Shown: piece by piece, positions 1 through 64,000 of the stretch
Numbering within the stretch: position 1 is the first letter of the stretch
Layout: the number at the start of each line of letters is the position of its first letter
Assembly: GCA_000091205.1 (NCBI GenBank)
Contig: AP006493.2
DNA length: 64,000 nt
Direction: 5' to 3' (one strand)
DNA from: Cyanidioschyzon merolae
Taxonomy: Eukaryota
Program-made: the position numbers and the translations under genes
Notes under the pieces: generated by a model
Databases searched by the model: none
What the model was told of the DNA's origin: nothing
What the model saw: only the letters and a program-made list of their open reading frames with translations

Positions 1-116
1 TGGAACTTGGAGGTAGAGTGCAGGACAATGGACGCATTTTCGATTACCAAGATACCCATCTATCAAGCAATCTGGGATCTATGGTCAATGGAACCGTGTT
101 GTGTCATCAGAAAAAA

Positions 117-4214: not shown

Positions 4215-4330
4215 CGTTATCCTGAAAGTCTCGCACCCAAAACAGAGCTTGGTAGACGCTATCCACACGAATCTCCTTTTGCTAATCCATTCGATTCCAT
4301 ACGTTCTATAAGAAATAATACCGAAGAAGC
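4215..4330. repeat. Dispersed repeat family F, copy 1 (homologous to ~52895-53030)
   Basis: Spurious ORFs 4161..4508(-) and 52856..53053(-) share YRTYGIEW/TTYGVEW and ETFRITVI/RTFRITCT. The nucleotide stretches 'cgttatcctgaa(a/c)gtc...caaaaca(g/a)ag' align. Confidence 0.5.
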
Positions 4331-13604: not shown

Positions 13605-15109
13605 AGACTGGTGCTCAGTTGTTCAAGGCAGCGAGCGCGTACGCCATATCCAGCAGGAAACGAATTGCATGCACAGCGCCTAGGCAAGGTGACGTCTGGT
13701 GCGTGTTTTGCTCCTGACGCCAAGCGCTGACGCGATCTCGAGCCGGCAACGAATCGCTTGCCCAGCGTCTACAGAGGCTGAGCTCTCGAGTTTGTTTTGC
13801 TCATTAGAGAGCCAACGCTTCAGTGATCTGCAGTAGGCAACGAACCAGGTACATAGCGTCCAAAGCCATTGCGTGAAAAACACATTGATGCATTTGCAAG
13901 AAACTGCCGTCGACAAGAGCACTGTCGTCGTGTCCAAGCTTAGCGCCCAGCGCTTTCCCGTAAACCTGCGTCAGGCGTTCAGTCTTTGCTATTATCACTG
14001 TGCAGGGTCAGAGCGGAAGAGAGTAGCCGGACAGCACCTGCTCTGCTGAGCTTATCTGAAGGTATACCTGCTGCCCGAATGCAATAGAACCGGTCCTCGA
14101 ATTCTGATGTATAAACAAAGTTTCGGGTCTCTTGCCAATGCCATCAACTTCGGTCGTTGTGAGCTTTGTTCTCAAACCGCTTGCTTTTCTTTTCCCTGGT
14201 CTTTAGCTTTCAATACTTCTGTTAATTCTTTTCTTCACAGCTCCGTTATCAACAGTTGAAGGATGCTGATGGCAGTGTCAGAGCCCTAATATCGCAGCTT
14301 TCAGCTGTTTTCATTGCACTTGCCGCACAGACTCTAGTTCCGATCGGAGCTCCGCTTGAGATGTTCTTTTTCTTTGTTTACATCGTGAGTGCACCCCTGT
14401 CAGCGGTGGCCTTTGACCATGGTGAGCTGTTCGCGTACCTGCACTACACTTTTTCTGAGCGTCGGCATGTGGCGCGTTAGGGCCTGCTTTATCGTGGAAT
14501 ACATCGCGTTCTCGGTTCCAGAACACTACGCGCCATATCCTACCCCAATTACTTACTGCATTCCGCGTCATATGATCACGGGCTCGCACTGAGCGATGCC
14601 ATCGGCGAGTACGCTGTATCACCGAGGCGCAAGCGCAATCGGCTCCATTTGCCGAAGGATTTGTGGATGACGATGTTGCCCACGGTGAATCAAGCACCGG
14701 TTGGTAAACCCAAGCTCGAGAACAAGTCGAGAAATTTCGATCCGTCTACCCTCTCATCGTAGAAAGCAGAGACGCACTCTCCACGGAAAGCGATCGCGGC
14801 GCTAGCTAAATCCCGAGTCCGGGACCTTTTTCCGTATGAACGGTTGGGACGGTAGCCTCTTCGAAAATAACCCCGTGAGAGGTATCATGCTGGTGTCGAA
14901 ATGTACACCGCCGATGGCAAAAACAAGAGGAGAATTTGGCTTTCGACTGGAATCGATTATTTGAGGTGAAATGTTTAGAGAACTTTCGGCATGCGCCTAT
15001 GAAGATGTCTTCAAGGGACGACGTCTGGTATTGTATCCCGTAAATCCAGCCGCGCACATTGATGCGCTTACGAACTGCCTTGACACCCAAATACCGAAAA
15101 CATGACGAA

Positions 15110-15260
15110 TGAGTGATTTCAGCATGCTGCACATAAGGAACGGAGGAGTGTGGAGGCTTGTACGCATATCATTGGGCAATGGTATCCGATAATTTTGCGA
15201 TCCCTTGTTTAGAGGTGTCGCGCAACATCTTGATTCCGTGGTCGTTACGAATCCAGTCGG
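15110..15260. repeat. Dispersed repeat family B, copy 1 (homologous to ~22185-22325)
   Basis: The nucleotide blocks 'agcatgctgcac...ttttacgaa/ttttgcgat cccttgtt(t/c)gagg(t/g)gtcgcg(c/a)a...tgattccg(t/g)g' are shared, at about 75-80% identity over ~140 bp in the same orientation. Confidence 0.55.
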
Positions 15261-15849: not shown

Positions 15850-16125
15850 TTCTCCGTTGACAAAACGTTTCCTTCGGCCAGCGTTCTCAGATTACGCGCA
15901 TTTTTTTTCTTGGTTCTTTATGTTTTTTTTTCAGTGCACGGTGCAGTATACATCAAACGCCCTACTTCTAAGTTACATTAGCTATACTTCTTCTCTGATA
16001 TTCTGGTCGTTTCATATGTCCTATCATGTGTGCCTTGTGCCTCCCGAAAGCGACAGCAATGGCGCCTATAGCGCCGGTGCGGTCGCTGCACTTAGACAGA
16101 ACGGCGTTGCCGCACCATACAGAGG
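15850..16125. repeat. Dispersed repeat family D, copy 1 (~280 bp SINE/MITE-like element; other copies ~41535-41805 and, inverted, ~62560-62815)
   Basis: The shared core is 'gacaaaacg...attacgcgcatttttttt...cagtgcacggtgcagtatacatcaaacgccctacttctaagttacattagctatacttcttctc(t/g)gatattctggtcgtt...gcgcctatagcgccggtgcggtc'. The three copies are about 80-85% identical, and the third is in reverse orientation. Confidence 0.7.
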
Positions 16126-16623
16126 GCGTCGGCTCGAGGGTTCGCCTTCCAATGCCCTGCGTGTGGCTCCAGGTTGGAATCCTGCACGCTATGGTAACGC
16201 TCTGCACAGGAGCTCCATAAATGTGCTATCTTGTACATATATAGGTAGTTTCAAGCCAGTGCATGATGCAGATGCCATGGACATACACCGCGCTGCGGTG
16301 TCGGCGCTTTGCGGACACCAGCGGTTCGCGCCAGATTGCAACAGTTGATTTCCCTTCGTTAAGTAAGGGAATTGCCTTATGCGCAGCGTAGATATTTTCG
16401 CCGCCGTTGGCGCACGACGGGCACACGAGACCCTATCCATCTCCCCGCAGAGATTGAGGATTATCGGAGAGGCCTCTCCAGACGTTTTGGATTCTGTTAA
16501 ACAACGAAGCGGCTTGAGCTGCTGGAGCGCTTACTCAACTGACTATTGGTTACTTTCTGGTTAAGTTTGGGTATTATTTAACTTATCTGTGGGAGCAAAC
16601 AAGAGACACGAGTTGCGCGTCGC

Positions 16624-29242: not shown

Positions 29243-31299
29243 GAGTCTAGCGCACTCTTTGTAGCGTGCTCAAACTCCATAGAGCCTGGCTGTTTCAAGA
29301 GCGTCGGCGAGTTCGTATTGGAGCTGCTTCAGGCAACGGAAGCAGGAGCGAATCTATTCTCGCACAGTGCAAAGTGCCGCTTTGTGAGAAGCGTACGAGA
29401 GAATCGTCGACGCTGTGCGCGGTGGGCGCCACTGGATAGGGCGAACAGATGATTTGGTCTTGTCAGAGGCAGTTCTCGAACGTCAAGATCGTCGTCACTG
29501 ATGTAGACGAGCAATATCCCGACAGATACAATACCAGCGCAAGACGATGATGTCTAGTGGGAGACGATATCGGGTGACGTCATCATAAACTTGTTTAAAA
29601 GAGGTTGTCGTGCACGAAGCGTTGTTCATACAGCATCTGTGCGAGACGTCCTACTGTGGCGCTCTGCAGAGCACAGGTGCACTTGTACCGTCGTTGTGTT
29701 TCCAGCAGCGAATTCCGGAGCACTTGTGCCAGCACACTCGTTTTACTTCTTGTTCAGTTCTCCTACCGACATTCAAGAGAAGGAATGTCTCCGATAGATT
29801 GGAGAGAGGTCACGGAAGGATTTGATGCTGTTCGAGTTTGCTTGGGAGAAACGATCACCTCTGTTCAAGTCGGTTATTCTACGTACAACGCATGGTTCCA
29901 TTACCATTCATGAAGTTCTTATGCTGAACCGCGTATGCCCGAGTCAGAACCTATCAAAGACCGTCGACATGGCTGTCTTGTGGTCAATATAATTCGCCGC
30001 ATGCGTTCACTAAGAAATACGATCAAAGAAGGCACAGGATGTGAAGTTTCCGTTCCGTTGATGCAAACGTCGATGAAGAGCCGCGGGTTGTCGACGAATC
30101 AAGCACGATTGTATGAAATACCGTCGCGCGTTGAACAGTACTCTGTCGATCTCGTCATGAGACAGGAACGCTTATTACAGAAGGAACAGCTTCCGTTTCA
30201 CTCGATGGGACTTTATCCAGAAGAAATGGTAGACATGGACATGGGTACTCAAAGAGCGGCAGCACGCTGCTCGAAGAGACGAGGCAATCGAGGATTCCGA
30301 CGACATCTGCACGAGCTGCGATGCGATCGTGTGGTCGCCTCCAAGTCGCCAAAAGAACAGGATTGATCGAGGCCTTGTCGTTCCTCGAAGAACTCCTCGT
30401 GGCATGCCCTTCCCATATTCTTCCGTCTAGCGCTTAGACATCGTCGCGTTCCATCACTAAAAAACGATAAGAGAGCAAGCGACTGAGATTGACGCTGAGC
30501 TGCGCTTTTTGCTAGTTTATGTTCCCTGGTTTATTCGAGTCGGAGCTTGTTTTAGGTTGCCATTCACCATTTCATGATCATTTTTTGATAACACCTCTAC
30601 GCAGACCAGGGACCGTCGACTGCGCTTTTGATGGCAAAGCGCTGTGAGGCATGCTCACTTGCAACTAGCTTCAGATTCCACCGCCCATACGTGCCCTCGG
30701 AGCATCTAGTTATGCTCCGCGTCCTATCATGCACCTTGCCTGCGGCGAGCGTCCGCAACAGCGCCCACTGCGCCACTGCGGATGCAACACGAAGATAGAA
30801 CGCCTTTGCCATACCACGAAGGGCGTCGACTCGAGTTTTTACGCTCATGGTCGATTAGAAAAGTCGTTCGCATTTGTGACATGGCTCTTCGACAACTCGT
30901 TTCTAAACAATAAAATCGTTCAGTTTTGCTACCAGTGTGCTGCTCTATCGCTCCTTTGTCCGTTACGGGATAGGGCGGAAAGCCACGCTTCAGTACAGGG
31001 GCCTCCTCGCGATGCAGAAGATACAGAAAATATGCGTTAGGGAGCGAAGATCCATGCATAGAAAAGGCGAGTTTTCTTGCCACCGTCCACCGACGTTCGC
31101 CTGAATCACTAGGAAAAACAGTACCTCGTATAGCGACCGTGTTCATGGCATCCTGCTGAGTCAATGAAAAGGCGATAGAGCTGGCCTCTGCGAGCAAGTA
31201 TGAAGCACTCGAGCAAGTTGTGAAGAGCAGTTGTGGCGTTCGTTCAAGTTTCTCACTTATTTTGTATGAACCGATCAACAGGACCTGTTTTCAAACGCT

Positions 31300-31560
31300 C
31301 AAGGCAATGGAGAGAAGGATTTCGTCGTGAGCATGGATCCCCGTTTGATTGATACCGTGGCAGTTGCCGTCCTTCGAGATCAAGAAGACGGAGTCGCCGG
31401 CCTGAACGGGATGCAGATGAAGCCACTGGAGTTTCCCAAGGCCGGGGATCATCGGGATTCGCGCATCGCCGACTCTATGAAGCATATCCAAACGTCGAAT
31501 GAGGGCGTCAGACCCATGTCGACGCTCCCAACACGATATAGACCAACGGGACACGCTCTG
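31300..31560. repeat. Dispersed repeat family C, copy 1 (inverted copy at ~48410-48650)
   Basis: The spurious ORF peptides LRDQEDGVAGLNGMQMKPL and LSQEDGAKDLNRMQMNPL share about 75% nucleotide identity over >200 bp in opposite orientations. Confidence 0.55.
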
Positions 31561-32940
31561 TACGATTCAGAGAGTACGCAAGGGTCCAAAAGCTTCAAGC
31601 GGCCTATCTTTGGCAGGAATGTATCAGAACGTGCTGGGGTTGACAGCGGTTTCGGTCGCGCGTACACAAGAAGCAAGGTGATCGACGACTTGTTTTGCGG
31701 GCTGGATGAGAATATGGCCGAGAATCCGGATCGCTTTGTGGTAGCGTCTGGAGCTGAATGTGCCGCATCCGGCAAATTCTGGCCACTTGCTCTTTCTCGA
31801 AGTGAGTGTAGAAACGTTCTGGTGCCTATGCCGTACAGTTCCCATTGATTAGTCCAAGACGAGATACACGCATCTTGAGCACGTGTCCATTCTGAAACTG
31901 GTAGAAAAGATGAGAATGAAACAGCGACGGATGCACGAGATGATGCAAGGTAAACCCACCGAACGTCATTTAAAGAGACAATGGAAGCCAGGAGGCTCAC
32001 AACGGTATATACAATCACCAAAAAGAAACACGAGCACTTTCTGCACCAAGAGATGAACGTCTTGATCAACATCCGCAAATTTCTGTTGCCTCCGGAGTGT
32101 CCAGCGGTTTCGTATCTCGCACGAAGTCTCTCACAACTCATTTATTATGCTGTGTGCCTCCATGGTGCTGAAATGCTGCAGACTCGTGATGGAAAGAAAC
32201 CGCACGCCAGGAGAAAGTGGATTTGAATGACCCTGGACAAAGGCACTTGTTTGGTACGATTCACGAATCCCGAACGGCTTACGCGCTGGGATGTACAGAC
32301 AGGGAACGATCCTCGTAAGCATTTTTTCAGAAGATAACGGGATTTTGCTACGCGACGTTACTATGGATATCGCCATCGGAGAGCAGCCTGCGAGAAACGG
32401 AACACCGGACGGGTAGTGTCAAGGCTCCCGACGCGAACAGCCTCTGACGTCCGAACAGACGCCTTCTGAGATCGAGGCCTGGCGTCGGACCGAGTGCATC
32501 GCCAACGAGTACCTGGTCGTCACCCGCAAGTGAGGGCATCGAATACCACTATGGATCTCAGTGTTTAGATTGGTAGTCTGCTGGCCTACCGAGCGTTTTC
32601 AGTAGCGCTCGAATTTGCACCCGGAGGAGCTCACAAGCTGAACCACTGCCAGAGCGTCACTGCGGCAAGCACGGCCACTGACGGGTCGAGCGCACGCGTG
32701 CAGCTTGCTCTCACAGGCAAGCGACTGCTCCTTTTCTACAAACATTACACTCGGTTTGAATTTTAAGCGGGAGAGAAGAGCTTTGAGAGCGAAGACGTGC
32801 AAGCTGTAGCCGCTGGAGCAGCTGCATATCCGAGCGTTACGCTTTCCGTGGGCACTGCAGAAGCAGGCGCCCTTGCCAAGCGTCGATGCCGGCGCTCAGC
32901 GCTTCGAGCGCTAGCATTATCACCTTCCAGAAGCAAAACT

Positions 32941-41534: not shown

Positions 41535-41805
41535 ATTCTTTTTCATGGACAAAACGTGTCCATGGGCCAGCGGTCTCCGATTGTGCGCTTTTTCCTTTCT
41601 TTTCTTTTTTGTCAGCGTGCGGTGAAGTATCCATCAAACCGCCTGCTTCCAAGTTACATTATCCATACTTCTTCTCGGATATTCTGGTCGTTTGGTTCGT
41701 TCTATTGTGTGCCGAGCGCCTGCTTTGTTGGCCCGCAATGCCGCCTATAGCGCCGGTGCGGTCTCTGCGCCGAGGCAGAACACGGCGTTGCCGTACCACA
41801 CAGAG
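41535..41805. repeat. Dispersed repeat family D, copy 2 (directly abutting repeat A copy 2)
   Basis: See copy 1; it aligns to ~15850-16125 at about 85% identity in the same orientation. Confidence 0.7.
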
Positions 41806-41979
41806 GACATCGGTTCGGAAGCAGTCGGTCAATGCGTGACGCTTTCGGGTCGTGTGCAAGCAACGAGCGCACCTGCGCTCTTTGGAGCGCATGCTTGCTG
41901 CCTGGTGCGGGATTCAAGGATCGATGGATTCGAGGCAGCACCCGACTCGAATACGCTGGACAAAGGTTGGATGTATGGA

Positions 41980-43304: not shown

Positions 43305-44854
43305 CGTCAATGGTATTATGACTTGCATGTATGCGTGCATGCAAATAGTCTGATACCAGAGAAGCCGCCATCTTCTCTCTCTAAGTGCGACGACGCTCCG
43401 CTCATTTCTAGAGCAGAATACCCGTCAGGAATGGATGCTCGACCGATCTCGCGATAATCCAGGTGCTGCACCTCTGTCGGGCTCACGCATATGCTTCTAA
43501 TGCAGGCACAGGGCAGCGACTGAAGCGCTTCGCCAGACGCTGGTTGTGCGCTTGCCAGGTCACGCACACTCGTCTCATACGGTGCGAACTCCATGCATTC
43601 ATCGAGCTTTCCCCGGTGTACCCAAATGCTGCTGGTGGCCACACAAGAGACCTCGGGTTCACCATGAGCGTTTCAACGTGTCTCGCACTCCATACTGGTG
43701 CTCTCCTCGGAATTCGAGCTGAGATGTATCCTGTGAGGATTCAGTTGCGGCACCTTACGCGACCACCGATGAATACCTGGTGCTTGCGTAATGCCGTGTG
43801 CGGGCGCTGACACGAACTGCAGTATGCTTCTGTGCGAGGCCAGCATGTGCCGTATTCCTGGAATCCAACAGGATGCGTAGCCAGGATACACTCATGTGCT
43901 ATGCTTTCGTGCCGAAAAGCTTCCCATCGTATATGTGTACCGCTCGCAGTGCCGATCACAAGCGCAGTGCTGTGGCGACAAGGGATCAAACATCGTGCCG
44001 TACTGTCGCGGTTTCGCCTCTGATGTGAACGGCGTTTCCGACTCAACGAGCCGCCGCCAGTCTCCCGTGAGCCGCTGCCTTTCTTCATGCGGTCGAGAGC
44101 CAGTCGCGATCAAGGCTCTTTGCGTACATCGAGGCAATGCCTGATTCTTTTGCAAAAATGCAGTGTGTCGATGACATGCTGGGGCTTCCAACCGCCACCT
44201 ACCGCGTCGGTGTCTGAGTATGTATGTGGTCAGTGATGCAGAAAACGCTCTGCGACACTAGAGCGTAATGATACATACACTTACAGACGCCTCCAGTCCT
44301 TCTTTGACCCGCTGACTGCTATAGATTTTGTTTTATCCAGGCAGAGAACGACCCTGAGAGGCTGCCACACCAAGTCGCATAGCGACAGCTTCCCGGTTCT
44401 CGCCTCGAGCAGTACACTTTACATGATATGGATGGCGGCGTTGATGTCCCGGTTCACGTACTCCTTGCGTTTATTGCCTGGAGTGGAACTCGCCTTTGCA
44501 AGGATTGTTTGACCTCGTGCACTCTGCGCCACTACAAGCTCATCATTATCCTGCCGTGCTGGCACCGTTTCTCGCCTATCTCCTCTCTCTTTTTCTTCGT
44601 CTCCTTCGCTCGATCATCGGTGAGAAGAGGATTTTTCCGTTTTTGTCGAACCCGGCGATGACGGGCATCTAGGATCTTCCACTTCTATGCCCATCGCTTT
44701 CCCTTAGACTTTATATTTCTTCAAATGAACGTACATCGAACCCATCTACTATAAACCGTGAAAAAGCAGTTGGTTACTGTATTCTAGAGGTGGAACACCA
44801 TTGCGTTGAAAGACTAAACGTTAGCCGTCAGGCACTTTCAGTTGAGCGCGCGCG

Positions 44855-47095: not shown

Positions 47096-48409
47096 TTGAT
47101 CGAGCTGCTTCGGGGTGTGGGTGCGGGTCCCGATGCATTGTACGCATCATGAAAACGCATCCAGACGCTCTGCACTGAGATGGAACCAGAGTCGCACGTC
47201 GCAAGGCATCGAAGGGCGTACCAGACGCTGGCGACGCTGGTGAACGTTGCCGACGCTGTCACGTGCGCTGGGCGCCAGGAGACTGCGTTTGCGCTATTCG
47301 GTATCGACAGCGGTCGTCTGCAGCGCTCAGCACCCCAAAACGTCAATACAGCAGGCGTTTAGGATCTTGAGTTGCTTAGTAGATGGTACTGATTGTGAGG
47401 TGGCGGTGTCCGCGGGTGCGTTTACAACCGCGGCTCCGTGCACGCATCCTCGTGGCTGAGTTTACGTGCCGTTTCTATATGTGCAGTACGCGCGTCGCAA
47501 ATATCCCGGCTGCGGTCATTGCATACTCATGGATATCGTGTCTGGGAGCAGCACGGGCAGCTACCAAATGCCGAAGAAAACTACTTCCATTGTGTAAACA
47601 TGTATATGTGTGTATGCGGCGCTCCAGTGTGTCAGAAATGCTGACCGTTCCACACCAGTTGCTTCGTCGAGGCGGGAATCCAGTCACGTTTCTCCTGGTC
47701 GCTGCTTTCGTTCCTTCCGAAAAGTTGCAATGTTTCCGCACAATGCCTTCGCCGAGTACGAAACGATTCCCATGGAATTCCGCTCGATAGAAAGCCGTTG
47801 GACGCTCAGAAAGCATGCCGCATATCAGGGTATTGACCGAGACGGTCAAGTGCCGTTGCAAAAAGTGTTTGCGGGCGTTGCTGCAGGTGGAATCACGCGA
47901 GAACAAGCCTCTCAACTTCGACTGACTTGCCGTCTGATATTCGATCGGCTCCATGTGCGCGCTTCAGTGCATGTGGCTCTGATACACGCTCTTGGTCTCA
48001 AGCTGTCCTCCCAAGAACACTTGCTCGTGATGCGCGTATACCCTCTTGAACGCATCGATGGGAATCGTGTAGAATCGATTCCTGCACTCCCTGTCTGCTC
48101 AAGGCGACGCCCTGGGATTGCGGTATTCGCACGTCAATGCACATTCACGGCCATAGGCTATCAAGAATCGATGCGACTTGTCGGTCACTTCCTTTTCTGA
48201 CTCTTTGAATACGTTTGCGAATGTATGCCCCTTGCCTCTGTGCAAGAAAAACAGCGGCGACTTTTACGCTATCTCATGTGCTCCTGTCAGGTGTCGTCCG
48301 CATGGACGATTTGGACGCTCATCTAATTTCTGCATGAATCACAAAAACATCCACATTTTCTCGATAGGTTGCAAAACGCATCGAGATGAATCATGACGCC
48401 GTCATCGCC

Positions 48410-48650
48410 TTTGTTGGTATACCCGCGTTGCGCCGATCATGTCCGACTCTGTTGGTACTACCGAGCCCTGACAAAGCTGAGCGGATTCATCTGCATTCTG
48501 TTCAGGTCCTTGGCGCCGTCCTCTTGACTCAGCGGCCTGGCGACGGCCAGATGCCCCGCAACCCGAAATCCGCACCCCACTACGAAATCGTTCACTGCAT
48601 CCACCAGGAGTCGTTGAAAAAAAATCACCGCGCACTGAGCAGACGTACAG
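48410..48650. repeat. Dispersed repeat family C, copy 2 (inverted relative to copy 1)
   Basis: See copy 1 at ~31300-31560. Confidence 0.55.
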
Positions 48651-50135
48651 TACAGCGCAGTCCAGAGCATCACTATCTACAGTGATACAATGAATGTCTA
48701 TGTGAAATAAACGGAGCACATCGAACCGAGGGTCAGGGAGGGCGACGGTTCTCGCATTTCGTTTCAATGCTGCCGTGCCCTGGGGGGATCCGTTCAGGAG
48801 CACCTGGTAACCCAAGGCGCAAGGAGAGCAGGCATCAAGTTGGATCCATCCTTTTTATACAAAGTTCGTCGGTCCGATGTCGTGAGTTCCACCCTGAGCT
48901 TGCTCGTTCTGTTGTGACGTTCGCACGCGTTGCTGCATCGCTTCCGAACACGCGACCACGTCGAGCTTTTCCGAGTCCAGCTCGTCATTTGACTCCATCG
49001 ACTCGCGAGCAACCCTTTCTATCAGTCCAAACTTGTCGGATCTAGTAACCATAGGGCAGATAAATACATAAATTCTCACAGAGAGCTCTTCATGAAGCGC
49101 TCGATATTGACCCGCATATGTGTTTTGAGGTGATGATGCGATATATCCGCACTTACGCAATCGAACTTGATCCATCGTGGACGTGGCGTGGCGAATCGCC
49201 AGGCTCTTCATGGACACGGTTCGTAAATTCCCTGATCCTATGCTTATTCCGCACTGGGTCTTCGGTTCCGACGATCACCCGTGCCGTTGCACAAAGGCAA
49301 TGTCGATAAGTACAAACGAAATGTGAACAGCTTGCAGCCCTGCGTCCGAACGATGACAAACCGTTGCTCGATGAGATGCGTCAAGGCGAGCAAAGCAACC
49401 CGGACTTTCCGCAGCTCAGAGGCTGCACCATCCCTGATCGTGTCCTGCATCTCTTGTTTTCGAATATTCTCCCCGTTGATGTTCTGTAGTAGGCAGGGTT
49501 TGGGAACCGAATCACAATGACCATTCCGCTCTGACAGTGTTCGCTCTCAGTCAGTTCCCGCCCGTTTCCAGCAAAATCTTTCTGTTCTTCGTTTGGCGGC
49601 GTCGTATCCTTCATCTCCTTGGTCGTCCAGTGAAGTTCTCAACCATATTTCTGGAAGCGTAAGCTTGTCTCACGGCCACCGTTGGCAGGCGCACTCACAC
49701 TGATGCCCTTCACGCTCGGTATGCGAATGAGCACTGCAAGCGGAGACGAGACTTTTATGCGGTTTTGCGTGAAACGCTCAGCATGAATCGACCAGAAACG
49801 TACCAACACACAATAAGATACAGGCCTATTCGATACAAAGTCTCTCCTGCTACCCAGGACGTCGTGCATTGCTGGAGCACCGGATGCCCAGCATTCTCGG
49901 AAAAGCCTAGAGCCCCGCGCAACGCACTGCGAACGGAAACCTTCTGGTGCGCTCTGTGCTTAGCGATAGCGGAGAGACTGTATCGCAAAGATTCAGGCGG
50001 TATGCCAATGACTAATTTACTGCAAAATCTAGACTTGCTGAAGAAACTGATGGAACTGGGCGTCTAGTCCAGGGTTTATTTGCAACGATATCGCTCTGCG
50101 CTGGCACACTGCGAACATACGCTGCGCCGGTTTCC

Positions 50136-52010
50136 GTGCGGCGGCAGCGTCCTCGGTCGCTATCCGTCTACAAGCGACCGTACATGCTCGCAACCGGAAA
50201 CGCTTCGAAGCAAGAGAAGCGCCCTCCGTCGGGTTCCGCTTTCGAGCGTGGTCGACGAAAGCGGTCAACAACGTATACCTCCCGAACCAAGCTGCGGAAA
50301 CCGGAATCTCCAACCGATGAGTTCGGAACCGCTGAACCGGGCTCATGGGCGTCACTTGTCAAGTCTCGTCCGGGTTCAGTTGCCCTCTGGCTAAAATACG
50401 CCGCATCCGAAACCCAGAAACGTGGTCCCGAAGCCGGTCGAGAAGTCCTGGAGCAAGCCCTCCAGAGCCGGGATCTCTACCGACAGGAGGCATTGTGGCG
50501 TGCCTTGGCCACGAAATATCAGACCTGTTATGAAGCGGCTCTAAAGAAGATACGACAAGCTATTCAGCTCCTGCCAAGAAGTGCGTCGCTCTGGGAACTG
50601 TACACAGAGCTTCGTTATTTTCCATCGGAGGTGCTGGTTCGCTGCCCGCTGGATGAATGCAGCGACGCTGACGATCGTACACAAGTGCCACTCTTTGTTC
50701 ATTTCGAACAAGAATGGCTCACCGCTTTGCAAGAAACACACGCAAGTCTAGAAGAAAAGGAGCATGTGTATCTCATCTGGGCCGCAACCTTGCGGCGGCT
50801 ACAGAACACGCAAGCATCCTCCTGCAGCCGTGCTGAGAACCTGGAAACTGCAGCGCGTGATTTTCCCGAAAAAAACATAGATGCTGTCGCACGGGCGTCG
50901 TCCGGGGAAACGATCGCTCATGCTGTGCTTCTACGTGGAGCGCGTTGTCTTCGTTCAGCTCGTTTATGGAAATACTTCCTGGAAAGCGCCGTATCACTAA
51001 GCGGGAACGACGACCTGGCCCTGCTCGAGGAGGCCATGTGCAGCGTCCCGCCTCTACGCAATGATTCATGGTTCTGCGATGTTCTTCGAGCGCGCCGTGA
51101 GCGCTGGGCTCTTGAACGCGATACAAGGACGCTTGCGAGCCACGTCGAGCGTTTCCCTACAGATCCGGAAGCGTGGCTCATGTTTGCCGAACACTATCGA
51201 TCTGTGTACGCTGATGAAACCCAAGCGGAAGCGATTTTGTTGACTTTCTTGCAGTACGGCTTTTCTCAAGCACCTGGTGACTCGGTCGCCCGCTTCATTG
51301 CTACCTTGCTGGATCAATCTTGGTCCCGTACGAGGAGCCTTGCTCGAGTGCGCGCTTTTCAGGAGAGCGCCCTTGCCTGTGCAAGCGATCGAGCCGCTCG
51401 AGATGCTATTTTTCGGGAATCTTTGCGATTTGAGCGCTACAAAGCAGTCTGTCTGGAGCGATGTAGGGAGCTGTTTCGTCGTTGGCTCGCGGAGGCTCCG
51501 CATTTAGCCTCGGTTTGGGCATCCTGGGCGCAGCTCGAACGCGAGGTGGCGAAGGTGCCGGCCAACGCTGTTCTGGTACTGCAGGTCGCCGTGGATTTGT
51601 TTCATGAGGCATTTGAGCTGCATCCATCCGGTGATGCGATGTGTCGGCAGCGTCAAATGCTGCAGATTCTGGCGCTTTGGAGATCACTGATCGATTCGCG
51701 CCTTGCGGAATGCTCAGATCCGCAGCAGCAACAGGACGCTCTTCGGAGCGCTTACCGAGTCTTGTTGAACAGATATTCCAATTCGCTTGCGGTTGTTTGC
51801 TCGTATGCAGCATTGGAAGCTTTTACTGGCGAAGGAGGCCTTGATTCGGCGCTGGAATTCTTGCGTCAGAGAAGACTAGAGGAGCACTGGCCTCCAGAAG
51901 ATCAGCTGCGACTAACTGAATTCGTAGCGGCGTTACGGAGAACACACGCCGCGGTGAGTCGGCGGATACGAGCTCGTCTCTGGCAAGATATCCGCGATCC
52001 GTCTGACTAG
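50136..52010 (+). CDS. HAT/TPR-repeat protein of RNA-processing type (NRDE2/UTP6-like; precise family not resolved)
   Basis: 624-aa ORF with a basic N-terminus followed by half-a-TPR-like repeats (VALWLKYAASETQ..., LWRALATKYQ..., SLWELYTELRY...). There is no enzymatic motif. Confidence 0.5.
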   Translation: MRRQRPRSLSVYKRPYMLATGNASKQEKRPPSGSAFERGRRKRSTTYTSRTKLRKPESPTDEFGTAEPGSWASLVKSRPGSVALWLKYAASETQKRGPEAGREVLEQALQSRDLYRQEALWRALATKYQTCYEAALKKIRQAIQLLPRSASLWELYTELRYFPSEVLVRCPLDECSDADDRTQVPLFVHFEQEWLTALQETHASLEEKEHVYLIWAATLRRLQNTQASSCSRAENLETAARDFPEKNIDAVARASSGETIAHAVLLRGARCLRSARLWKYFLESAVSLSGNDDLALLEEAMCSVPPLRNDSWFCDVLRARRERWALERDTRTLASHVERFPTDPEAWLMFAEHYRSVYADETQAEAILLTFLQYGFSQAPGDSVARFIATLLDQSWSRTRSLARVRAFQESALACASDRAARDAIFRESLRFERYKAVCLERCRELFRRWLAEAPHLASVWASWAQLEREVAKVPANAVLVLQVAVDLFHEAFELHPSGDAMCRQRQMLQILALWRSLIDSRLAECSDPQQQQDALRSAYRVLLNRYSNSLAVVCSYAALEAFTGEGGLDSALEFLRQRRLEEHWPPEDQLRLTEFVAALRRTHAAVSRRIRARLWQDIRDPSD

Positions 52011-52894
52011 AAACTTGTAGATTTGGGGCAAAAACAGAGACACTAGGAGGTGCATAGTCCCCAGCTTTGGTGAAACGCGTAATTTCCGTGTTTGAGGCGG
52101 GTCATCCAGTGGTCCAAGACCCCGAGTTGCTGTGTGTTGCACAAGTGCCCGGTGCGCGCGGCCACGTAACGACGTGCATGGTCCGTAACTGATATGAGTT
52201 ACACGAATGCAGCGGGACAGCAGTGATGAACTCGGGCGCAGTATCTCAACACCTAACCTGCCTGGGTCTTGTATTCGTCATTTTTACATCAATTGTGCCG
52301 CTGCGTCACGCGGAGAACTTCACAAATCATTCCTCTGCTCCACAAGCAAATCAAAGCGAGAACGATATGCGGAGCGAAAACGGGCAGTAGACGAGTACTC
52401 GCCCGATATCTAACGAGAATCGAAAGCGCCCTGATTCGCGTATCGCAGATCAATGGGAATCCGAGGCCCTGTTTGCTCCGCCCAGGGTGCTCAGTGCTGC
52501 GATGTGCTACAACCGCTCCAGCTTTTCAAGTTTTGTACAGGCGGCAATTTGACATCCAATGCCCCACCAGATCTAGACGCATCTCCATTCATGTACATGA
52601 ATTCCAAAAGGCCATCCCCTGCACTAGGCTTGCAGAACGGCGCACTGCAGGATCGCAAGCGACCAGGTGCTGTGAATGTCTTGTTGTATGCAGAGCAGTG
52701 AACTCTGGTGCACATGTGCCAGGACGTCGTTTTTGTGATCGCTTCGTTTTTCTCGTGAGTGTTCATGAAAAGGATTGTTTCCTGTAGATTGGAGAACGGT
52801 GACGGAATGATTTTATGATGTTTCGGCTAGCTAGAAAAAAACGGACTTGCATCTGCTATTCAATGATTTTCCGCTCAGCTGGTAAATGAACCAC

Positions 52895-53030
52895 CTTTCT
52901 CGTACACGTTATCCTGAACGTCCTGTATTCAAAACAAGACCATTCAATTTCAATGTACAAGACTGTCTGCTCGTGCACCCATTCCACTCCATAAGTTGTG
53001 TGAAAAAGACTCCCAAAAAAGCCACAGGAC
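52895..53030. repeat. Dispersed repeat family F, copy 2
   Basis: See copy 1 at ~4215-4330. Confidence 0.5.
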
Positions 53031-53299
53031 ATGATGAATGTTTTGCTGTTCATTCAAACTGTGACGGATAGACACGGATGGGTAGAGAAAAAAGCACGCT
53101 TCTCGGTGAGGCAGTCATGCGTTGATCAACACACGCTCGATTCCGTGCTGGAACGTAAACGCTTAACTTTTTTGGACTTGGTCCTGTGACACCCCCGCTG
53201 AATTTATTCGAATGCCTTCTCGCAGCGTATAGATATGGAGATAGAGACCAGGACGCAGTGTACCGTGCAGATCGTAGACGAATTGCCTTTGGAATATAT

Positions 53300-54500
53300 T
53301 GTTTACTGAATGGCGCAAGCAGGACTGTATTTCTACCTCAGGTCAGTCATAACTCAGTGCGCAGATGTTTGGTGAACACTAAAAGAAGCAAGTACTGGCG
53401 CTCCGCGCCGCACACGAACACTCTTGAAGACTGCTTGCGATCAACGGTAGAAATCAACACGTTGATCAGCTTACGGAAGGCAAAAGCGATGCTTGTAGTC
53501 GCCACGGGCGTCTCTCCTTCTAGTCAGCTTGTTCGTATTTTCCTAGAAACTCTGGGATCCATTCGCCAAGGAAAGAGTCATTGTTCACGAACGGCTCTTT
53601 TCCACCGAAATCGCAACGAAAGCGTTCCTGGAATGCCGCGATGATTATAAAATACAGGAACGTCAGTTTGTTTTTTAGTCGATGTGACTTGCCTCGGATG
53701 AAACAGTCCTTGCGTATATCGATATTCGCGGAGCAGGGCCCCCATGCTACGTACTATCGAACTCGTAGAGAACGGGGAAATCATGTGTTCCCGCTGCATT
53801 GGATTCATTTGGCGGCCGCAATTACGCTCACGGAAAAAGCCTATAGAACAACACCAAGCACTTCGTCGAATCATGGAATACTTTTCCCATGATGTCTGGC
53901 GACGTCCTTCTAGTGGCCAACATGGTATTTCACGATCCCTGTTGCGTTCGAGCTTTTGCCGATTCTATCTTGGAAAAGAGCTACTTTTCATCCCGGCGTA
54001 CTTTTCGAGCTTGAACCGTATCTGAAGGGGTGTATTCTCTCGAGAACCGTAACGATTGCCCCAGGAGGCGAATCGTTCAAGCGCTCAGCACACGGTTATA
54101 CCGGGACGCATGTCGTCTTTCTTCCGCAAATCCCTCTTCCTCCAGAAAGGCCCTCACCTAAGGGTATAAAGAAGTGCGTTGCGATTAGAAAAATTAAGGC
54201 ATGAGCTCGATTATACGCTTCAGAAAGTCGAGATACGGAGAAGGCGAAGAAGGGCCCGGTAGATAAAAAATGCATATCGCAGACAGAGCGATAAATAGCA
54301 GAGAGGGCACGAGTTCGAGGAATCCTCGCACTTTCAGCTCAAACAGAGGCACAGAACGCATGGCATTCATGAACCGAGACTTTAACGCCGCCATCAGTAT
54401 CAGGAGTTGCGCAAGGCTGAAGAAGAGGCCCCAGGAGCTGAAGCTGTCTAACTTTGTGATGCAGCCTCTTCGACTCTCGAAGTTGACAAAGAGAAGCTGA
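53300..54500 (+). pseudogene. Degraded, frameshifted TnpB/Fanzor-like RuvC nuclease gene relic (copy 1)
   Basis: Successive + strand ORF fragments are 53186..53644, 53581..53892, 53956..54204 and 54270..54500. They give ...RRCLVNTKRSKYWRS...LRKAKAMLVVATGVSPSS (RuvC-II-like block), ...RTVTIAPGGESFKRS (resembles the x-Y-T-S-Q-x-C segment that precedes the zinc finger), and MAFMNRDFNAAISIRS (resembles the RuvC-III R-D-x-N-A-A-x-N-I motif of TnpB/Cas12/Fanzor). The zinc-finger cysteines are not preserved and there are multiple frameshifts. Confidence 0.4.
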
Positions 54501-54799
54501 AGCCGATGGCGGGCGGCCGGTCCAAAAACGCTGGGAGGCGTCTGCGTATGGGTATTCATTTACCCTCCAAGGTCGTAGTACATTTAATGTTTCACGGACA
54601 TGTGCAGTTTCCGTCCGTGCTGCAGACTGGTGCAGCTTCCCGCCACCTGCCCCATGCTGGAAAGCATTCGTTACGCTGCGACGCGCCAGCCGCGCAGCGT
54701 CGCCGGATATTCCAGAGCCGCCGCGACCTCGCGCTTGAGAGCGCACGTTCCGTTAGAAACGGGGTTTTTCGTTTTGGAGCGGGTGCAGAGGCCGTAGTC

Positions 54800-55258
54800 A
54801 TGTCGACACCGGCTCGGAGAAGACTCATACGGGACTTCAAGAAACTGCAACAGGATCCTCCTGCTGGTATCTCAGCAGCACCAAGTGAAGCAGACGTCTT
54901 GAAGTGGACAGGAGTAATTTTCGGCCCGGAGGACTCCGTGTTTGAAGGCGGGGTCTTCAAGTTGACCCTAACGTTCAGCGAGGAGTACCCAAATAAGCCT
55001 CCTGTCGTCAAGTTTATAACCAAAGTCTTTCATCCTAACTTTTACTATGGAGACGGAGGAGTCTGTTTGGACTTGCTCCAGAACAGCTGGAGCCCCATCT
55101 ATGACGTTGCGGCCGTCTTGACCTCTATTCAGTCGTTGCTGTGTGACCCCAACCCGAACTCGCCGGCGAATGCGGAGGCCGCCAGGCTATACCTAGAAGA
55201 CCGGCGAGAGTATAATAAACGCGTCCTGCAGTGCGTGGAAGAGTCGTGGTTGACTTGA
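54800..55258 (+). CDS. UBC2: Ubiquitin-conjugating enzyme E2, Rad6/UBC2 (UBE2A/B) orthologue
   Basis: [30 protein letters not shown]...[84 protein letters not shown] matches Rad6 almost throughout (HPN, active-site Cys, PNPNSPAN). The ORF-track frame extends upstream, but the canonical start is the MSTPARRRL Met. Confidence 0.93.
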
Positions 55259-56937: not shown

Positions 56938-58852
56938 TTATCTAACCTGAACCCGAGACCCCTCCAAGTTAAAGAGCGTCTCGACTGATGACTTTAAAGA
57001 ACTCGGCGAACCCTGAACCAGAGCAGACCGGAACTCGTAAAATCGATCGTTTTTGTTGCCGCCCTGCAACCGGGCCAGATGGAAACGTGATATTGAGCTG
57101 GTTGCCCGGTTCCTGCCATCCGATTTCTTTCCGAACTTTTTTTCGTAGATACACGGCCTCGATATTCCAATTCAGCACTAGGGGTTTACGAATCAATATG
57201 CAGGTTTTGAACTGGCGGTCGTGTTGTTGGGGTGGCTCCGTCTACTCTTTGCGGATGGAGTGCGTTAGACCACCGGCATCAGGATGATTCGCGAAGCATT
57301 CGAGCTGCGGTTCCTGAAATAACCGATACCATTATCCCGTTTACATGAACAGGCACCCAGTCTTCTCCATTTGTTCCGTTTACCATGCTCGAATCCCGTT
57401 TGTTTCAAGTTTTCGATCTTTCGCTTCCAAGGCAACTCAAGGGCGCAGCAGTATGCCCTGCAGCATTGACGAGGAAAAAACTCGACGAATTCCCTGGACG
57501 ACATCTGCTAAGGCTTATGCCAAAAGTTCGCTGAACTTTAAATCCTAAGAATCTATATAGGTTGATACACAAACCACTCTCGCTTTGTGTTCATCCATGA
57601 AACGTCATTCAACAGCCACAGGATAACGCTTACGAAACATATTTGGAGAGGCTCCCGTCTCTCCTGTGTGCATGGAGAAGCGTATCGGATACGGAATTGA
57701 GTCGTTACACCGACCGGCCAGTAGTGGAGCGCCCATCACCGCTATGCATGAAAGGAACTAAGACGGACGACAAATTCTCAACTTGTTCTCCAGCCTGGAT
57801 TATCCTTCCAGTATTTTTTATCATCAAGGACCAGCTCGTGCTCAACAAATCCTCTATCGAATGCGACCGCGCGCGCTTAGGTGAATAGCGGACAACATAC
57901 TCGGTGTAGGGATCGCGCAGAAGAGACTCGTTGTCATGATGCACGACGCCGACCGCGGAACCGCAGGAGGTTTTTCATGGGAGTCGTCTGTGGCCGTCAA
58001 TGGCATGTACCTGGCGACAATGAAAGCGCTCACACACCACAGGGTCAGTCTCGGAGGAGGAGGCGTAGGTGCGGTAGACCGACGAAAAAGTTTTGGACGC
58101 AGTCAGCTGGACCGCTGCAAAATGCTCACCGCGGCCGTAAACAAAGAGGACGAACATGGCAACCGAACAGGAGATCGCAACTTCCCCAAACGCATGAAAT
58201 GTATCAACAGCAGCCGGAAGCAGCGAAATAGGGACTTGCACGCTCCCGTCAAGAAGCTTCGATCTCTGACATCAGCGCAAGACGAAAAACAGAAACGGGC
58301 GTGGGTAAAACCGGAGATTAGAGAGAGAAGAGGCAACAGTCGCATCACAAGTCCGCCAAGGCAGATGTTGACACCAGCGGGAGGCGCCTCAAACCTCATT
58401 CTATCTGCCTGCGTTTCTGGACGAATTCCATTTGACGCTGACCTGGTTATAGTCCCTGCGTGCTCGACGATGCTGGGCTTTGCTTACGCGCTGGTGAGAA
58501 TGCGCGCTCTTTTCGAAGTTTGAATATCCAGAACGCAGGAAACTTGGCTGGATGCTACTTGAGAATGTCTGCTGTGGGAAAGCCGGGAATCCACCGAAGC
58601 AGCAGGCAACATTTGTGGCGCATTCACACCTCTGCACCCCAAAGGCAATAATATGTGTATTTACGCTACGGCCGATGTAGAACTGTTTTCTTGCAAATGC
58701 GTCGCAATCTCTGAATCGTTCAACGCCTCAGCTTTCTGTAGCTTGACTTCCCAAACACCATTCCAGTCGTCGAGTGCGCGGGCGCTCGCCACTACTCCAT
58801 GCACAATACAGACCTGCTACTGTCTCGCAGCGTACACTGCACTGCCCTGGGA

Positions 58853-60421: not shown

Positions 60422-62559
60422 TAGAAGCTGGGCCTTTTCAGGACAACGCCTCGCCCCCGGCTATTGACCGCTGGGGGCGTAGATTGTATCGGTGAGCGTC
60501 GCCGCAGCCGCCGGCCTCACGATGGCATCCGACCGTCGCAGTCTTGGCATGATGCCTTGGAAAAGCGACCGCTGGCTGCTGTCTGCAGGACGAACAGACC
60601 AGCGCATTCTGACAGACGCTTCGACGTTGGAGACGCTTCAGTCACGAATTTTCCCTGGGAATAGAGGCTATGTGTCGAGCAATCGCCAGTGTACCGAGTC
60701 GGCCTTGCGCGCTGCGCCCGTGTCAGGGATGCATGGAACACCGAAATGCATGCGCTGTTCCCGCCTTGCGATTCATTATACGAACGATTGTCGAAATGCA
60801 CCGTCGGTATTCCGTGATACAGCAACAAGGGCTTATGGAACGATACGTAGGTTTGGGAATTTGAGTCTTTTTTGTCCGAGCGGCTTCTTCGACTCGTTGG
60901 GGCTGAAATGCGTTACGTCACCGAAATAAAAGGGATTCGCGGCGCATTCGAAAGAACGTTCGTAAATAATCAATACCGATATTCATTTCTCTATGTGGAA
61001 TTCTCTACATTTCTGCTCTTTTCACGTCTGGCATGCCCAAATGACGCATGCGTACGCTGTTTGATCTTTCTTTTTCGAAGCATCTCGTTGATGCAGCAAC
61101 GTGCACCGCTAGATTGTTAACGAAAGAAACTTGACTTCGTTTCCTGGCGGCTTGTCCACAAAATCGATGCAGTAGCTTCACTGAATTCGTCACGAAATAA
61201 ACATCGATTTCGTTCGAAAGACGAGGTCTCCACTATTTCTGACCATCCACCAAGGACATTCGATAGCAGGAGCATGATACCTCTCGAGGCACGTGCACGC
61301 AGAGGCTGCCTTGTTTTCTGTTTTCACGGAAACTTGTCCTGGACTTGGACTTGAATGATCACAGCGATCACTTTCAGTGGAGCATATATGACTAGTCTGT
61401 ACTACGTGAGCCTAGACATATCAAATTCTCTCGACTTGGTCCCCTTCATGGATTTTAGCCTCTGGTACATGTTTCGTCATGGGTGACATCGGGTTTCACA
61501 TATTCTTGTCTATTCGTAAAAACAGCAGGGAACAGAAGGCGGATCAAGTTATGCATTTGAAGAAACGCTTCATCGTTCATTCCGTCTAAGACCGTCTTCT
61601 CGACCGTGAAGAACAGGCTCAGGGAAGCAAAACCAATATTTGGACAACTCAGATTGTCCTTGAAACGAACATGTGGAAAGTGCTTCCGGTGCGTAAACTT
61701 ACCACTAAACAGCGAGGATGGGGAAGAACAACAGAACGGACCGCTAGTTGGTGACTTGTTCATCGATGCTGTCCATCGCCCGCAGCACGAGATAAAACGG
61801 GGCATCATTCACGTCTATTCGGAAGTTCACTTGAGCGGTATAAGATCCCGCGCGCCGAGATTGAGATCTTTTCAGAGAAAAATGTACCCGCCAACCCGAG
61901 CGACGAATCCAACCGCATGCCAGATGCGGCAATGACAGGAACGTCCGGTTCCCTTCTGCTCTGCATAGCATTGCGATCCTGGGAGCCGAATGGCGATACA
62001 AGCGCGCTCCATCGGGCGCCATTGACGGGTACTAACCTACAAGTCACTTGCAGCCTTTCGAGAAAAGATAACGAATTATCAGTACATTAACGAAGAAGGG
62101 ACACCAATAGAGGACTCTACAATAGCGAAAGAGGCCCAACGGGATACAGAAGAAAAGACACAATGGCATCATGATCCACATGCCAGAAGAGTAACCAGAG
62201 AAAGTAGCTCAGGAAAGAGCCCGAAGAAGAAGAAGACCAACAAGAGAAAACAGAAGAATAGAGAGAAGAACTCCCAAACGGGCCCATCACAAGTGATCCC
62301 CAGAAAGAGCACCCAAGTGGGAACTCAAGAAAGCTGCCACCAAACCCAGTCACCTACTCACAGCGCTGTAGATCCGAAAAGCCGTGCATACAAATCTTTA
62401 GACCAATTGGCACGCGAGTTTGTAGCTGGGAATCAGAAGATCGCCAGAGAACTGGGACGGCTGGCACCAGAACGCAACAGTTGCAAAGCGCAGAACCTGA
62501 AACGACGTACCAAAACTCGGATTGATGGATGCTACCGACTCAACAAGATCGTCAACCGC

Positions 62560-62815
62560 ACCGCCATACGTGCCAACGCCGGAGACAAGGAAGCGAAGGC
62601 AGCGCTACCGGCGCTATTGCGGGCGATCAGGGCAGGCGCTCGGTGCACGATTTTACGTATGAAACGACCAGAATATCCGAGAAGAAGTATGGGTAATGTA
62701 ACTTGGAGGTGGGCGGTTTGATGGATACTTCACCGCACACTAACAAAAAAGAAAAGAAAAATGCGCATAATCGGAGAACGATGGCCTAAGTAAACGTTTT
62801 GTCAATGAAAACAAA
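62560..62815. repeat. Dispersed repeat family D, copy 3 (inverted), adjacent to the second Fanzor-like relic
   Basis: The reverse complement aligns to copies 1 and 2 ('...gaaaagaaaaatgcgcataatcggagaacg...' against the rc of 'cgttctcagattacgcgcatttttttt'). ORF 62293..62721 ends ...MKRPEYPRRSMGNVT, and ORF 15968..16207(-) has ...MKRPEYQRRSIANVT. Confidence 0.65.
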
Positions 62816-63037
62816 ATCGCAATACCCAAGCGTGCGGAAGATGGTAACGACTGTAACTTACGTCAGAAGGACATGCGTCTGTTGAGGTCCTGGAGAGCAA
62901 GATACTATCGAGAATCGGGAATAATGAATGCGAGGACAAAAATCGAGATATGGAATGCAGGAATGAAGGATCACCCCTGGAAGCTAGGAGCGAGGTGACG
63001 AGCCTAGGAGCGGACCTTCAAGCTTTTCGGAAGTTTC

Positions 63038-63580
63038 ATGGAAGTTAGCGTTGTTCATTGGGAGGCGCTGTGGAATGAATATACAAAGCCCCGGTGGGCT
63101 CGTCTGCGTATGAATCTATATTGTGGGAAGCGGCGTGCATTTGACAACTTTTTTAGTTCGTTGAGCGCCTTGAAGGAGAATGAAAATCAGAGGCTCGTAA
63201 TTGCGTATGGAGCAGGGCGCTGGAAGACCCAATAAGGGATTACGCCAGCTCCAACGATGAGAACGTACACGGAGTGTGCACGTCGTTTTGTTACGATACC
63301 TGTAGAAGAGTTCCGAACGTCCTAGACACACCATAATCTGGGGTGTACGCTCCAGCGGGTTGAGATGAAAAAGCGCCAGCGGAGCTCTGAGGATATAAAA
63401 AAGTACGGAGCACTGACGGAAGAGCAAATGGAAAGGAAAGCGAAATTTCGAGGATTGCTTGCATGAGTAAGTACAACGAATGATGGCAAGAAACGTATGG
63501 AGTTTGTGAACCGGGACTTGAATGCCGCGATCAGTGTGCGGAGATATGCGTTGATGGAGACGAGGTCTACAGAGTAGACA
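63038..63580 (+). pseudogene. Degraded, frameshifted TnpB/Fanzor-like RuvC nuclease gene relic (copy 2)
   Basis: ORF 63038..63235 gives RWARLRMNLYCGKRRAFDNFFSSLSALKENENQRLVIAYGAGRWKTQ (RuvC-II-like region; compare TnpB R..kR.D.lHK.s...vi.iEdL and Fanzor vIaiGDw). A shifted frame gives ...TMRTYTECARRFVTIPVEEFRTS (like G..VV.V.E.YTSQ). A further shifted frame at ~63497 gives MEFVNRDLNAAISVRRYAL (RuvC-III-like). It is about 75% identical to the relic at 53300-54500. Confidence 0.4.
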
Positions 63581-64000
63581 AGAGTGAATTTTCTTGGACA
63601 ACCACGCAAAGTGGATTTATATTGGAAAAAGTTGGAAGTATTAGATGGCCGCTCGAGAACACCTGGAAGGCACCTGCACGTCAGCTGTAGACGTCTTGTC
63701 TAGGGCGGTTTACTCGCCACTACTGTGCACTGCCGGCGGCATCGTTTTTCTTTTCAAGGGCGTTCGGTTTCGGAGGTGATGAACTTTTCGTGTTCCGGAA
63801 CAAAAGCACTAAAACGTTGCCGTTCCCGGAGCTGGGGTATTTGCTTAGTCGTTTTCAACTTTTCCGTGTAGACGACTGAGGTATTACGCGTTATACTGGG
63901 CTGCAGAGGGGAGCACAAAAGCTCCGCAAGCAAACTCGAAGGTATTTTAGGTAGCCTGATCGAAACGCAGAAGCGCTGGTCCGTAACTTCCCGGGTACGA

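Follow-up and report, generated by a model that had tools for sequence, protein, structure and literature searches.

Remains of a Tc1/mariner-type transposase and a Fanzor1 3′ fragment upstream of the Rad6-type gene of Cyanidioschyzon merolae

What occupies the DNA just upstream of the Rad6-type E2 gene of Cyanidioschyzon merolae? We analyzed a 64-kb stretch of this genome (contig AP006493.2; hereafter the window), in which nine long open reading frames (ORFs) match annotated C. merolae 10D proteins exactly (BAM80588-BAM80601 range). The locus lies within a 2.8-kb gap flanked by a HAT-repeat gene (ORF 50136-52010) on one side and the Rad6-type E2 gene on the other. The original prediction, made from the letters alone, had read five consecutive ORF fragments at 53300-54500 as the C-terminal half of a dead Fanzor nuclease with a TnpB-like RuvC domain. 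We found that the flagged element is real, dead, and already known. In our reading, to which we assign a probability of roughly 0.88, the region is nonfunctional transposon debris consisting of a Tc1/mariner-type transposase pseudogene and a 3′ fragment of a Fanzor1 element, likely the remains of one composite. The locus is nonfunctional: its Fanzor part lacks two of the three catalytic residues and is frameshifted, and its transposase carries stops and has lost the second catalytic Asp. The finding is of little weight, since the C. merolae Fanzor1 family (CMe-1A, ~150 copies) was published in 2013 and the copy in question is short and dead; the connection to a Tc1/mariner transposase and the probably misannotated start of the Rad6 coding sequence (CDS) are new, though only modestly so.

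The Fanzor fragment at 54180-54605

Bao and Jurka (2013, Mob DNA 4:12, PMC3627910) described one C. merolae Fanzor1 family, CMe-1A, as a 3169-bp element with ~150 copies that are ~80% identical to the consensus, without terminal inverted repeats (TIRs), transposase, or classification. The CMe-1 protein and CMe-1A consensus DNA given in the supplementary files of that study were aligned directly to the window. On the plus strand at 54180-54605, a 3′ piece of a CMe-1A-type Fanzor1 element was delimited by nhmmer, a protein hidden Markov model (HMM), tblastn, and a match of its tail to copy C, a second relic on the minus strand (44239-44842). The fragment is ~425 bp long and covers CMe-1 residues ~611-728 plus the tail common to copy C, where 54506-54599 matches 44322-44229 by self-comparison and pairwise alignment. 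By nhmmer, 54199-54549 aligned to nt 2735-3088 of the consensus with 68.8% identity (E 3.1e-35), and 54200-54545 matched (E 1.6e-33) an element profile built from three metagenome (environmental) copies and copy B, a third relic in the window (62793-63797, plus strand). Alignment to the published consensus from the same genome thus places the relic in the CMe-1A family, as a copy of a repeat catalogued since 2013.

Protein-level searches gave the same picture. A tblastn search with CMe-1 recovered three pieces (residues 621-659, 658-710, and 704-728) in three frames with a joint E of 5.2e-17. The translated pieces, FVNRDFNAAI included, are 41-55% identical to CMe-1, and the piece with RuvC-III (residues 658-710) is 54.7% identical. 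In six-frame searches of 2,805 fragments, four collinear pieces (54197-54253, 54301-54351, 54339-54479, and 54473-54595) in three frames matched positions 625-757 of a 790-position family HMM; the third scored 53.2 bits (E 2.4e-15), and the motif-bearing fragment also matched a broad Fanzor1 HMM (E 1.8e-9). The profile, consensus, and tblastn matches bear out the proposed dead Fanzor relic just upstream of the Rad6-type gene, and the tblastn and HMM comparison with Fanzor sequences that had been suggested as a check gave matches that are clearly significant. Of the element, the relic retains only the final 11%. Because its divergence exceeds the ~80% identity typical of the family, its sequence would fit an old copy or, together with copy C, a sister subfamily of CMe-1A.

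The RuvC-III motif N-R-D-F-N-A-A-I-S lies at 54372-54398 on the plus strand, as established from the sequence, a mini-HMM (49.4 bits, E 3.5e-14), and the CMe-1 alignment. Its Asp, encoded by GAC at 54378-54380, is the counterpart of CMe-1 D672 and the sole catalytic residue kept in the relic; the RuvC-I (D431) and RuvC-II (E603) residues are absent, and there is no uninterrupted ORF carrying RuvC-I, -II, and -III. Self-comparison showed that the motif region has two diverged paralogues elsewhere in the window (63473-63631, plus; 44490-44350, minus), which keep the reading frame and differ by conservative substitutions. The start of the homology is marked by HELDYTLQKVE at 54200-54232 (plus), the counterpart of CMe-1 HELGCTLQRVE (residues 611-621), which was outranked solely by other true copies in its mini-HMM search (14.3 bits, rank 4) and was also found by tblastn with the relative P0006. 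This start is eight codons past the RuvC-II glutamate. Since the Fanzor piece keeps the RuvC-III Asp only and is frameshifted, it is unable to encode a nuclease.

Could the NRDxNAAIS match have arisen by chance, as an isolated motif in otherwise ordinary intergenic sequence? Two of the three motifs named in the original prediction are indeed at chance level: MLVVATGVSPSS, taken as RuvC-II-like, scored -2.3 bits with its mini-HMM (rank ~749), and TVTIAPGGESFKRS, taken as the segment preceding the zinc finger, scored -2.1 bits (rank 735), both at background among the roughly 2,000 or more six-frame hits ranked. When scanned with Pfam and NCBIfam, none of the five ORF fragments gave a match at E<=10, and a phmmer search of the motif-bearing ORF against Protein Data Bank (PDB) sequences returned nothing relevant at that threshold. 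Chance is nevertheless refuted by the collinear homology over ~350-425 nt to the consensus (E 3e-35), by the family HMM match, and by the two paralogues in the window, and we regard it as practically excluded. The third motif, MAFMNRDFNAAISIRS in ORF 54270-54500, is thus a genuine RuvC-III. The prediction had named two signs of such a chance match, isolation of the motif and a lack of collinear RuvC-I and RuvC-II remnants. The motif proved not to be isolated, but those remnants are indeed absent from the locus because the relic begins after the RuvC-II glutamate.

The repeated frame breaks that had been noted are real, with at least three frameshifts and one in-frame stop within 54197-54595. 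Introns occur in some eukaryotic Fanzor genes, and the fragments lie in order on one strand, so that the breaks might be the introns of an intact gene. However, the homology starts at CMe-1 residue ~611, and the preceding 2.2 kb, which is filled by a transposase relic, shows no Fanzor similarity: 52000-54200 gave no Fanzor match by nhmmer (E<=1000) or by protein HMM (E<=10). In addition, the homologous pieces overlap or abut wherever the frame switches, leaving no nonhomologous sequence between them, and the in-frame stop sits inside conserved sequence (TER*IAERARVRG). Moreover, the CMe-1 consensus gene has a single exon (PMC3627910), and the other genes of the window are uninterrupted long ORFs. 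An intact gene with introns accordingly has a negligible probability.

Assignment of the family to Fanzor1

To which nuclease family does the relic trace back? Searching with the conceptual translation of copy B yielded 208 proteins (best E 6e-132), every one of them from a metagenome or read-archive assembly and some with Pfam DUF8286, and an exhaustive profile search gave 2,283 relatives at E<=1e-3. A 102-sequence family profile searched against the whole PDB matched PpFz1 from Parasitella (9CF0, E 7.9e-24), SpuFz1 from Spizellomyces (8GKH, E 2.5e-17), and GtFz1 from Guillardia (9CER, E 7e-12), and nothing else. Narrower searches were negative: a 10-sequence profile had no match in the PDB, and the AlphaFold model from that alignment reached a predicted local distance difference test score (pLDDT) of 39; a phmmer search of the copy B translation against PDB sequences gave nothing relevant; and Pfam, run on copy B and long family members, reported a subthreshold PF07282 (Cas12f1-like_TNB) match only (E 0.019 in P0103), with no match for the relic. 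D398 and E569 never vary across the 102 representatives, and D636 occurs in at least 90% (P0092 numbering); in the CMe-1 consensus, the triad is D431, E603, and D672 (CMe-1 numbering).

The Fanzor/TnpB fold, with a RuvC core and a REC/WED-like N-terminal half, was sought in an intact relative rather than in the relic. This relative, P0092, is an intact 676-aa Fanzor1 ORF on environmental contig L010, and its AlphaFold (AF2) model has a pLDDT of 90.9. The predicted fold is present: Foldseek ranks 1 to 7 were all Fanzor1 (E 8.5e-18 to 4e-15), followed by Cas12 variants and TnpB, and the model superposes on SpuFz1, PpFz1, and GtFz1 over its whole length with template modeling (TM) scores of 0.53-0.72. 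Identity to these three proteins is 11-16%, the algal clade lacks their CxxC...C cysteines, and the relic, unlike them, keeps the third catalytic residue only. Bacterial TnpB (ISDra2, 8H1J) and Cas12f share with the family a distantly related RuvC core (Foldseek E 1e-4 to 1e-3) and the RDxNAA RuvC-III motif, but their TM scores are 0.2-0.34, and the algal family has no IS200/IS605 TnpA and a different N-terminal half. Taken together, the PDB profile matches, the conserved D-E-D triad, and the Foldseek ranking assign the family from which the relic derives to Fanzor1, as judged from sequence and a modeled structure.

A further point is the zinc finger. The Fanzor1 motif of Bao and Jurka (PMC3627910), D-X-[TS][TS]-X-X-[C4 ZnF]-X-RD, has a C4 zinc finger lying between RuvC-II and -III. 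The algal clade as a whole is missing the first CxxC; its consensus is VDEFRTTxxxxxDxxxL...VRGLLWCxST. The intact CMe-1 consensus reads FRTSYTHHELGC...RGLLALVS where canonical Fanzor1 shows CxxC...C (CMe-1 residues 604-660) and is also without the Cys after RGLL, whereas SpuFz and PpFz carry FRTSSxCPxC at the position of FRTSYTHHELGC. The original prediction was therefore correct that the cysteines are missing but not that this signals decay, since the whole clade, the intact CMe-1 consensus included, lacks them. Zinc-finger loss is a clade variant and no ground for exclusion from Fanzor1, because Bao and Jurka (PMC3627910) place CMe-1 in Fanzor1 nevertheless. With respect to a guide RNA, RNAalifold on six 3′ ends, which are few and closely related, gave a covariation term of +0.29 and no covariation support for an omega-RNA structure, and Rfam reported a chance-level purD match only (E 0.33) in 52000-55000.

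The transposase pseudogene and the origin of the locus

The Fanzor homology is limited to ~54180-54605, and so the five ORF fragments do not jointly form the C-terminal half of a nuclease; a Tc1/mariner-type (Pfam DDE_3-like) transposase pseudogene at 53261-54151 on the plus strand takes up two thirds of the flagged span. The pseudogene was delimited with a 296-position HMM made from 118 homologues, which carry Pfam DDE_3 and in some cases also HTH_Tnp_Tc3_2, as four collinear pieces: 53261-53584 (HMM positions 2-110, E 1.6e-16), 53595-53672 (E 0.25), 53850-53966 (E 1.3e-3), and 54068-54151 (E 0.8). Since these pieces span positions 2-294 in at least three frames with stops, 53261-54151 is an essentially full-length, broken pseudogene with whole-length homology to DDE_3/HTH_Tnp_Tc3-type transposases. 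A tblastn search with the transposase of L011, an environmental contig described below, also matched it (E 7.6e-4). Around the first catalytic Asp the sequence is kept (LASDETVL), the second has been replaced (LLVANMVFH at the locus versus LLDNVAFH in relatives), and the region of the third catalytic residue was not detectable in the relic, which therefore lacks an intact DDE set. The supposed RuvC-II-like motif (53487-53522) belongs to the helix-turn-helix region of this pseudogene (transposase HMM positions ~79-92), and the supposed pre-zinc-finger segment is the transposase C-terminal region read out of frame. We found no description of Tc1/mariner elements of C. merolae in the literature searched.

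The transposase pseudogene and the Fanzor fragment lie on the same strand with a gap of ~30 bp between them. Mariner elements often carry Fanzor1, with PUl-1 and PGv-1 as examples (Bao and Jurka 2013, PMC3627910), and in these, as in L011, a DDE transposase is followed by Fanzor1 on the same strand. L011:28-3349 (JGI 3300039470) is an apparently intact 3.3-kb Tc1/mariner-Fanzor1 composite in which 32-nt TIRs, 78% complementary and ending in TA, enclose both genes. Its transposase (116-997, 294 aa, DDE_3 with Pfam E 2.6e-22) is directly upstream of a Fanzor1 frame at ~1070-3151 of roughly 680 aa (family HMM 1070-3121; called gene 1319-3151). In contrast, both genes of the C. merolae locus are dead, ~1.9 kb of Fanzor is missing, and no trace of TIRs or TA duplications was found; identity between CMe-1 and the Fanzor of L011 is only ~43%.

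Within the window, two more same-strand pairs of a transposase relic followed by a Fanzor relic were counted, 4161-4938 with 5175-7148 and 29968-30553 with 31291-32217, all on the plus strand, and these support the reading of the locus as a single composite. Most likely, then, both parts are the remains of one Tc1/mariner-Fanzor1 composite transposon, which would have lost ~1.9 kb internally, corresponding to Fanzor codons 1 to ~610. Cut-and-paste transposition at TA sites is established for Tc1/mariner elements, and RNA-guided RuvC cleavage by Fanzor1 is established from the SpuFz structures. By analogy, a living element would move by cut-and-paste at TA sites through its DDE transposase, and its Fanzor1 would act as an omega-RNA-guided RuvC DNA endonuclease.

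Several observations weigh against this reading. A direct Pfam scan of the transposase relic gave no match, and its second and fourth HMM pieces are individually nonsignificant. A search around 52400-54800 turned up no convincing TIRs or flanking TA target-site duplications, an absence that is likely due to decay; a 9-nt palindromic match, TGCACATGT (52707 versus 54600), was too weak to claim as a TIR. In addition, the Fanzor fragment is closer to CMe-1A, which was described without transposase or TIRs, than are the Fanzor parts of the other two composites: it matches CMe-1A with E 3e-35 over 350 nt, compared to 1e-12 to 1e-15 over 800-1450 nt for theirs. Since the relic is so much closer to a transposase-less family, the juxtaposition could reflect two separate insertions.

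Under such a scenario, a 5′-truncated CMe-1A fragment would have landed beside or within an older, unrelated Tc1/mariner relic, and their adjacency would be coincidental. Apart from the published description of CMe-1A, this would fit with elements delimited in environmental contigs L007-L009, which have no transposase, and with copy B, which is likewise 5′-truncated and without one. Repeated insertion at this spot is also suggested because a further partial relic adjoins directly upstream, at 52634-53165 on the plus strand. Detected by self tblastx, pairwise alignments, and HMM, this older relic comprises the 5′ region and N-terminal part of a Tc1/mariner-type transposase, resembles 4010-4461 and 29658-29810 of the window, and gave HMM pieces at 52889-53020 (positions 39-82, E 2.6) and 53052-53165 (positions 93-130, E 0.016). 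On the other hand, three transposase relics in the window each lie 30-750 bp upstream of a same-strand Fanzor relic, and an intact composite exists in L011. We consider two independent insertions a serious alternative, with a chance well short of even.

Returning to the single composite, the three transposase relics that each precede a Fanzor relic hint at a carrier for a family that had been left unclassified. A broader scenario, which we advance tentatively as falling somewhat below an even chance, is that the CMe-1 lineage descends from a Tc1/mariner-carried Fanzor1, that the locus is a deleted composite, that CMe-1A lost its transposase later, and that intact versions, such as L011 with its TIRs and TA ends or the 676-aa ORF of L010, may persist in uncultured relatives and could be active RNA-guided nucleases. 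From their ORFs, L010 and L011 look intact and may offer a starting point for working Fanzor nucleases of the algal clade. Further relics of the same transposase are found in the window beyond the pairs listed above, with weaker matches at 15027-15170 (minus) and 57358-57667 (plus).

The Rad6 neighbor and other Fanzor copies

Is any part of the relic in use by the adjacent gene? The Rad6/UBC2-type E2 gene, a neighbor outside the element, has a 152-aa core ORF that starts at MSTPARRRL and occupies 54800-55258 on the plus strand (Pfam UQ_con E 6e-49). By exact look-up, the annotated CDS (BAM80600.1, 250 aa) carries an N-terminal extension at 54506-54799 (plus). It starts at an ATG at 54506, inside the Fanzor tail, and the frame is open through to the UBC domain; its first ~15 codons are tail codons of the Fanzor ORF in the same frame, and CMe-1 residues 704-728 align by tblastn to 54476-54550 in this frame. 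Together with the end of the relic ~200 bp short of the canonical ATG, this could suggest that the relic was co-opted, either as Rad6 promoter sequence or as a genuine N-terminal extension. However, the UQ_con (UBC) domain covers residues 106-243 only, and the 152-aa protein that begins with MSTPARRRL has the canonical Rad6 N terminus. The exact 152-aa protein was called on 17 environmental contigs, and in five environmental contigs (L002-L006) the match to the window ends upstream of 54746-54786, that is, downstream of the ATG at 54506. N-terminal extensions of 205-270 aa are also called in related strains, but these vary or are unrelated. Co-option is accordingly very unlikely, and from these comparisons the extension is probably not translated, with the annotated start ~98 codons too early. 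L005, a Logan contig with the exact Rad6 protein, was considered as an alternative upstream allele and rejected as chimeric: a 357-aa dehydrogenase-like ORF (L005:1-1023) is fused at window position 54746.

Six Fanzor1 relics of very different ages are present in the window, namely, those at 54180-54605, 5175-7148, and 31291-32217, copies B and C, and a sixth at 47733-49537 on the minus strand. Their identities range from ~23% at the protein level (to intact relatives) up to 85% at the nucleotide level (to the CMe-1A consensus). This range suggests several waves or lineages, compared to the one family of the 2013 survey. The original prediction was right that this genome once harbored active elements of this kind, but CMe-1A and its ~150 copies were already on record and the indication is not new.

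Copy B aligns to the end of the consensus (62814-63762 to 2221-3169) with 85% identity and holds ~310 codons in one frame, ending near 63760. It displays the full Fanzor pattern, ...LVIAYGAGRW...FVTIPVEEFRTS*THHNLGCTLQRV...RGLLA*VST...FVNRDLNAAISVRR. An altered genetic code was considered for this copy and rejected because the in-frame stops are a mixture of TAA, TAG, and TGA. Directly 5′ of its truncation point is an A-rich stretch (62000-62800), with an AT skew of 0.395 over 62001-63000. Part of this stretch, 62066-62390, is another repeat, because L007:1-332 matches it in reverse with 80% identity. Copy C is internally deleted, with consensus positions 782-1069 joined straight to 2840-3123, and CMe-1 codon ~55 is therefore fused to codon ~647; the relic upstream of the Rad6-type gene has the same variant 3′ tail.

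Five further fragments match the 5′ end of the CMe-1A consensus only (its first 100-315 nt), at 1-102 (minus), 15856-16193 (plus), 30586-30838 (plus), 41548-41819 (plus), and 62607-62804 (minus); the last adjoins copy B in inverted orientation. Presumably, these are copies of the short, nonautonomous TE-N2_CMe, a 635-bp CMe-1A derivative with ~70 copies (PMC3627910). Finally, environmental CMe-1-type copies carry tandem repeats of ~75 bp just upstream of RuvC-I (L007:2550-2702, L008:3350-3726, and L009:392-767), each encoding ~25 aa (...KDEEKKEA.P..QEVEDNDFVV...), and because the number of repeats varies, ORF length differs between these copies.

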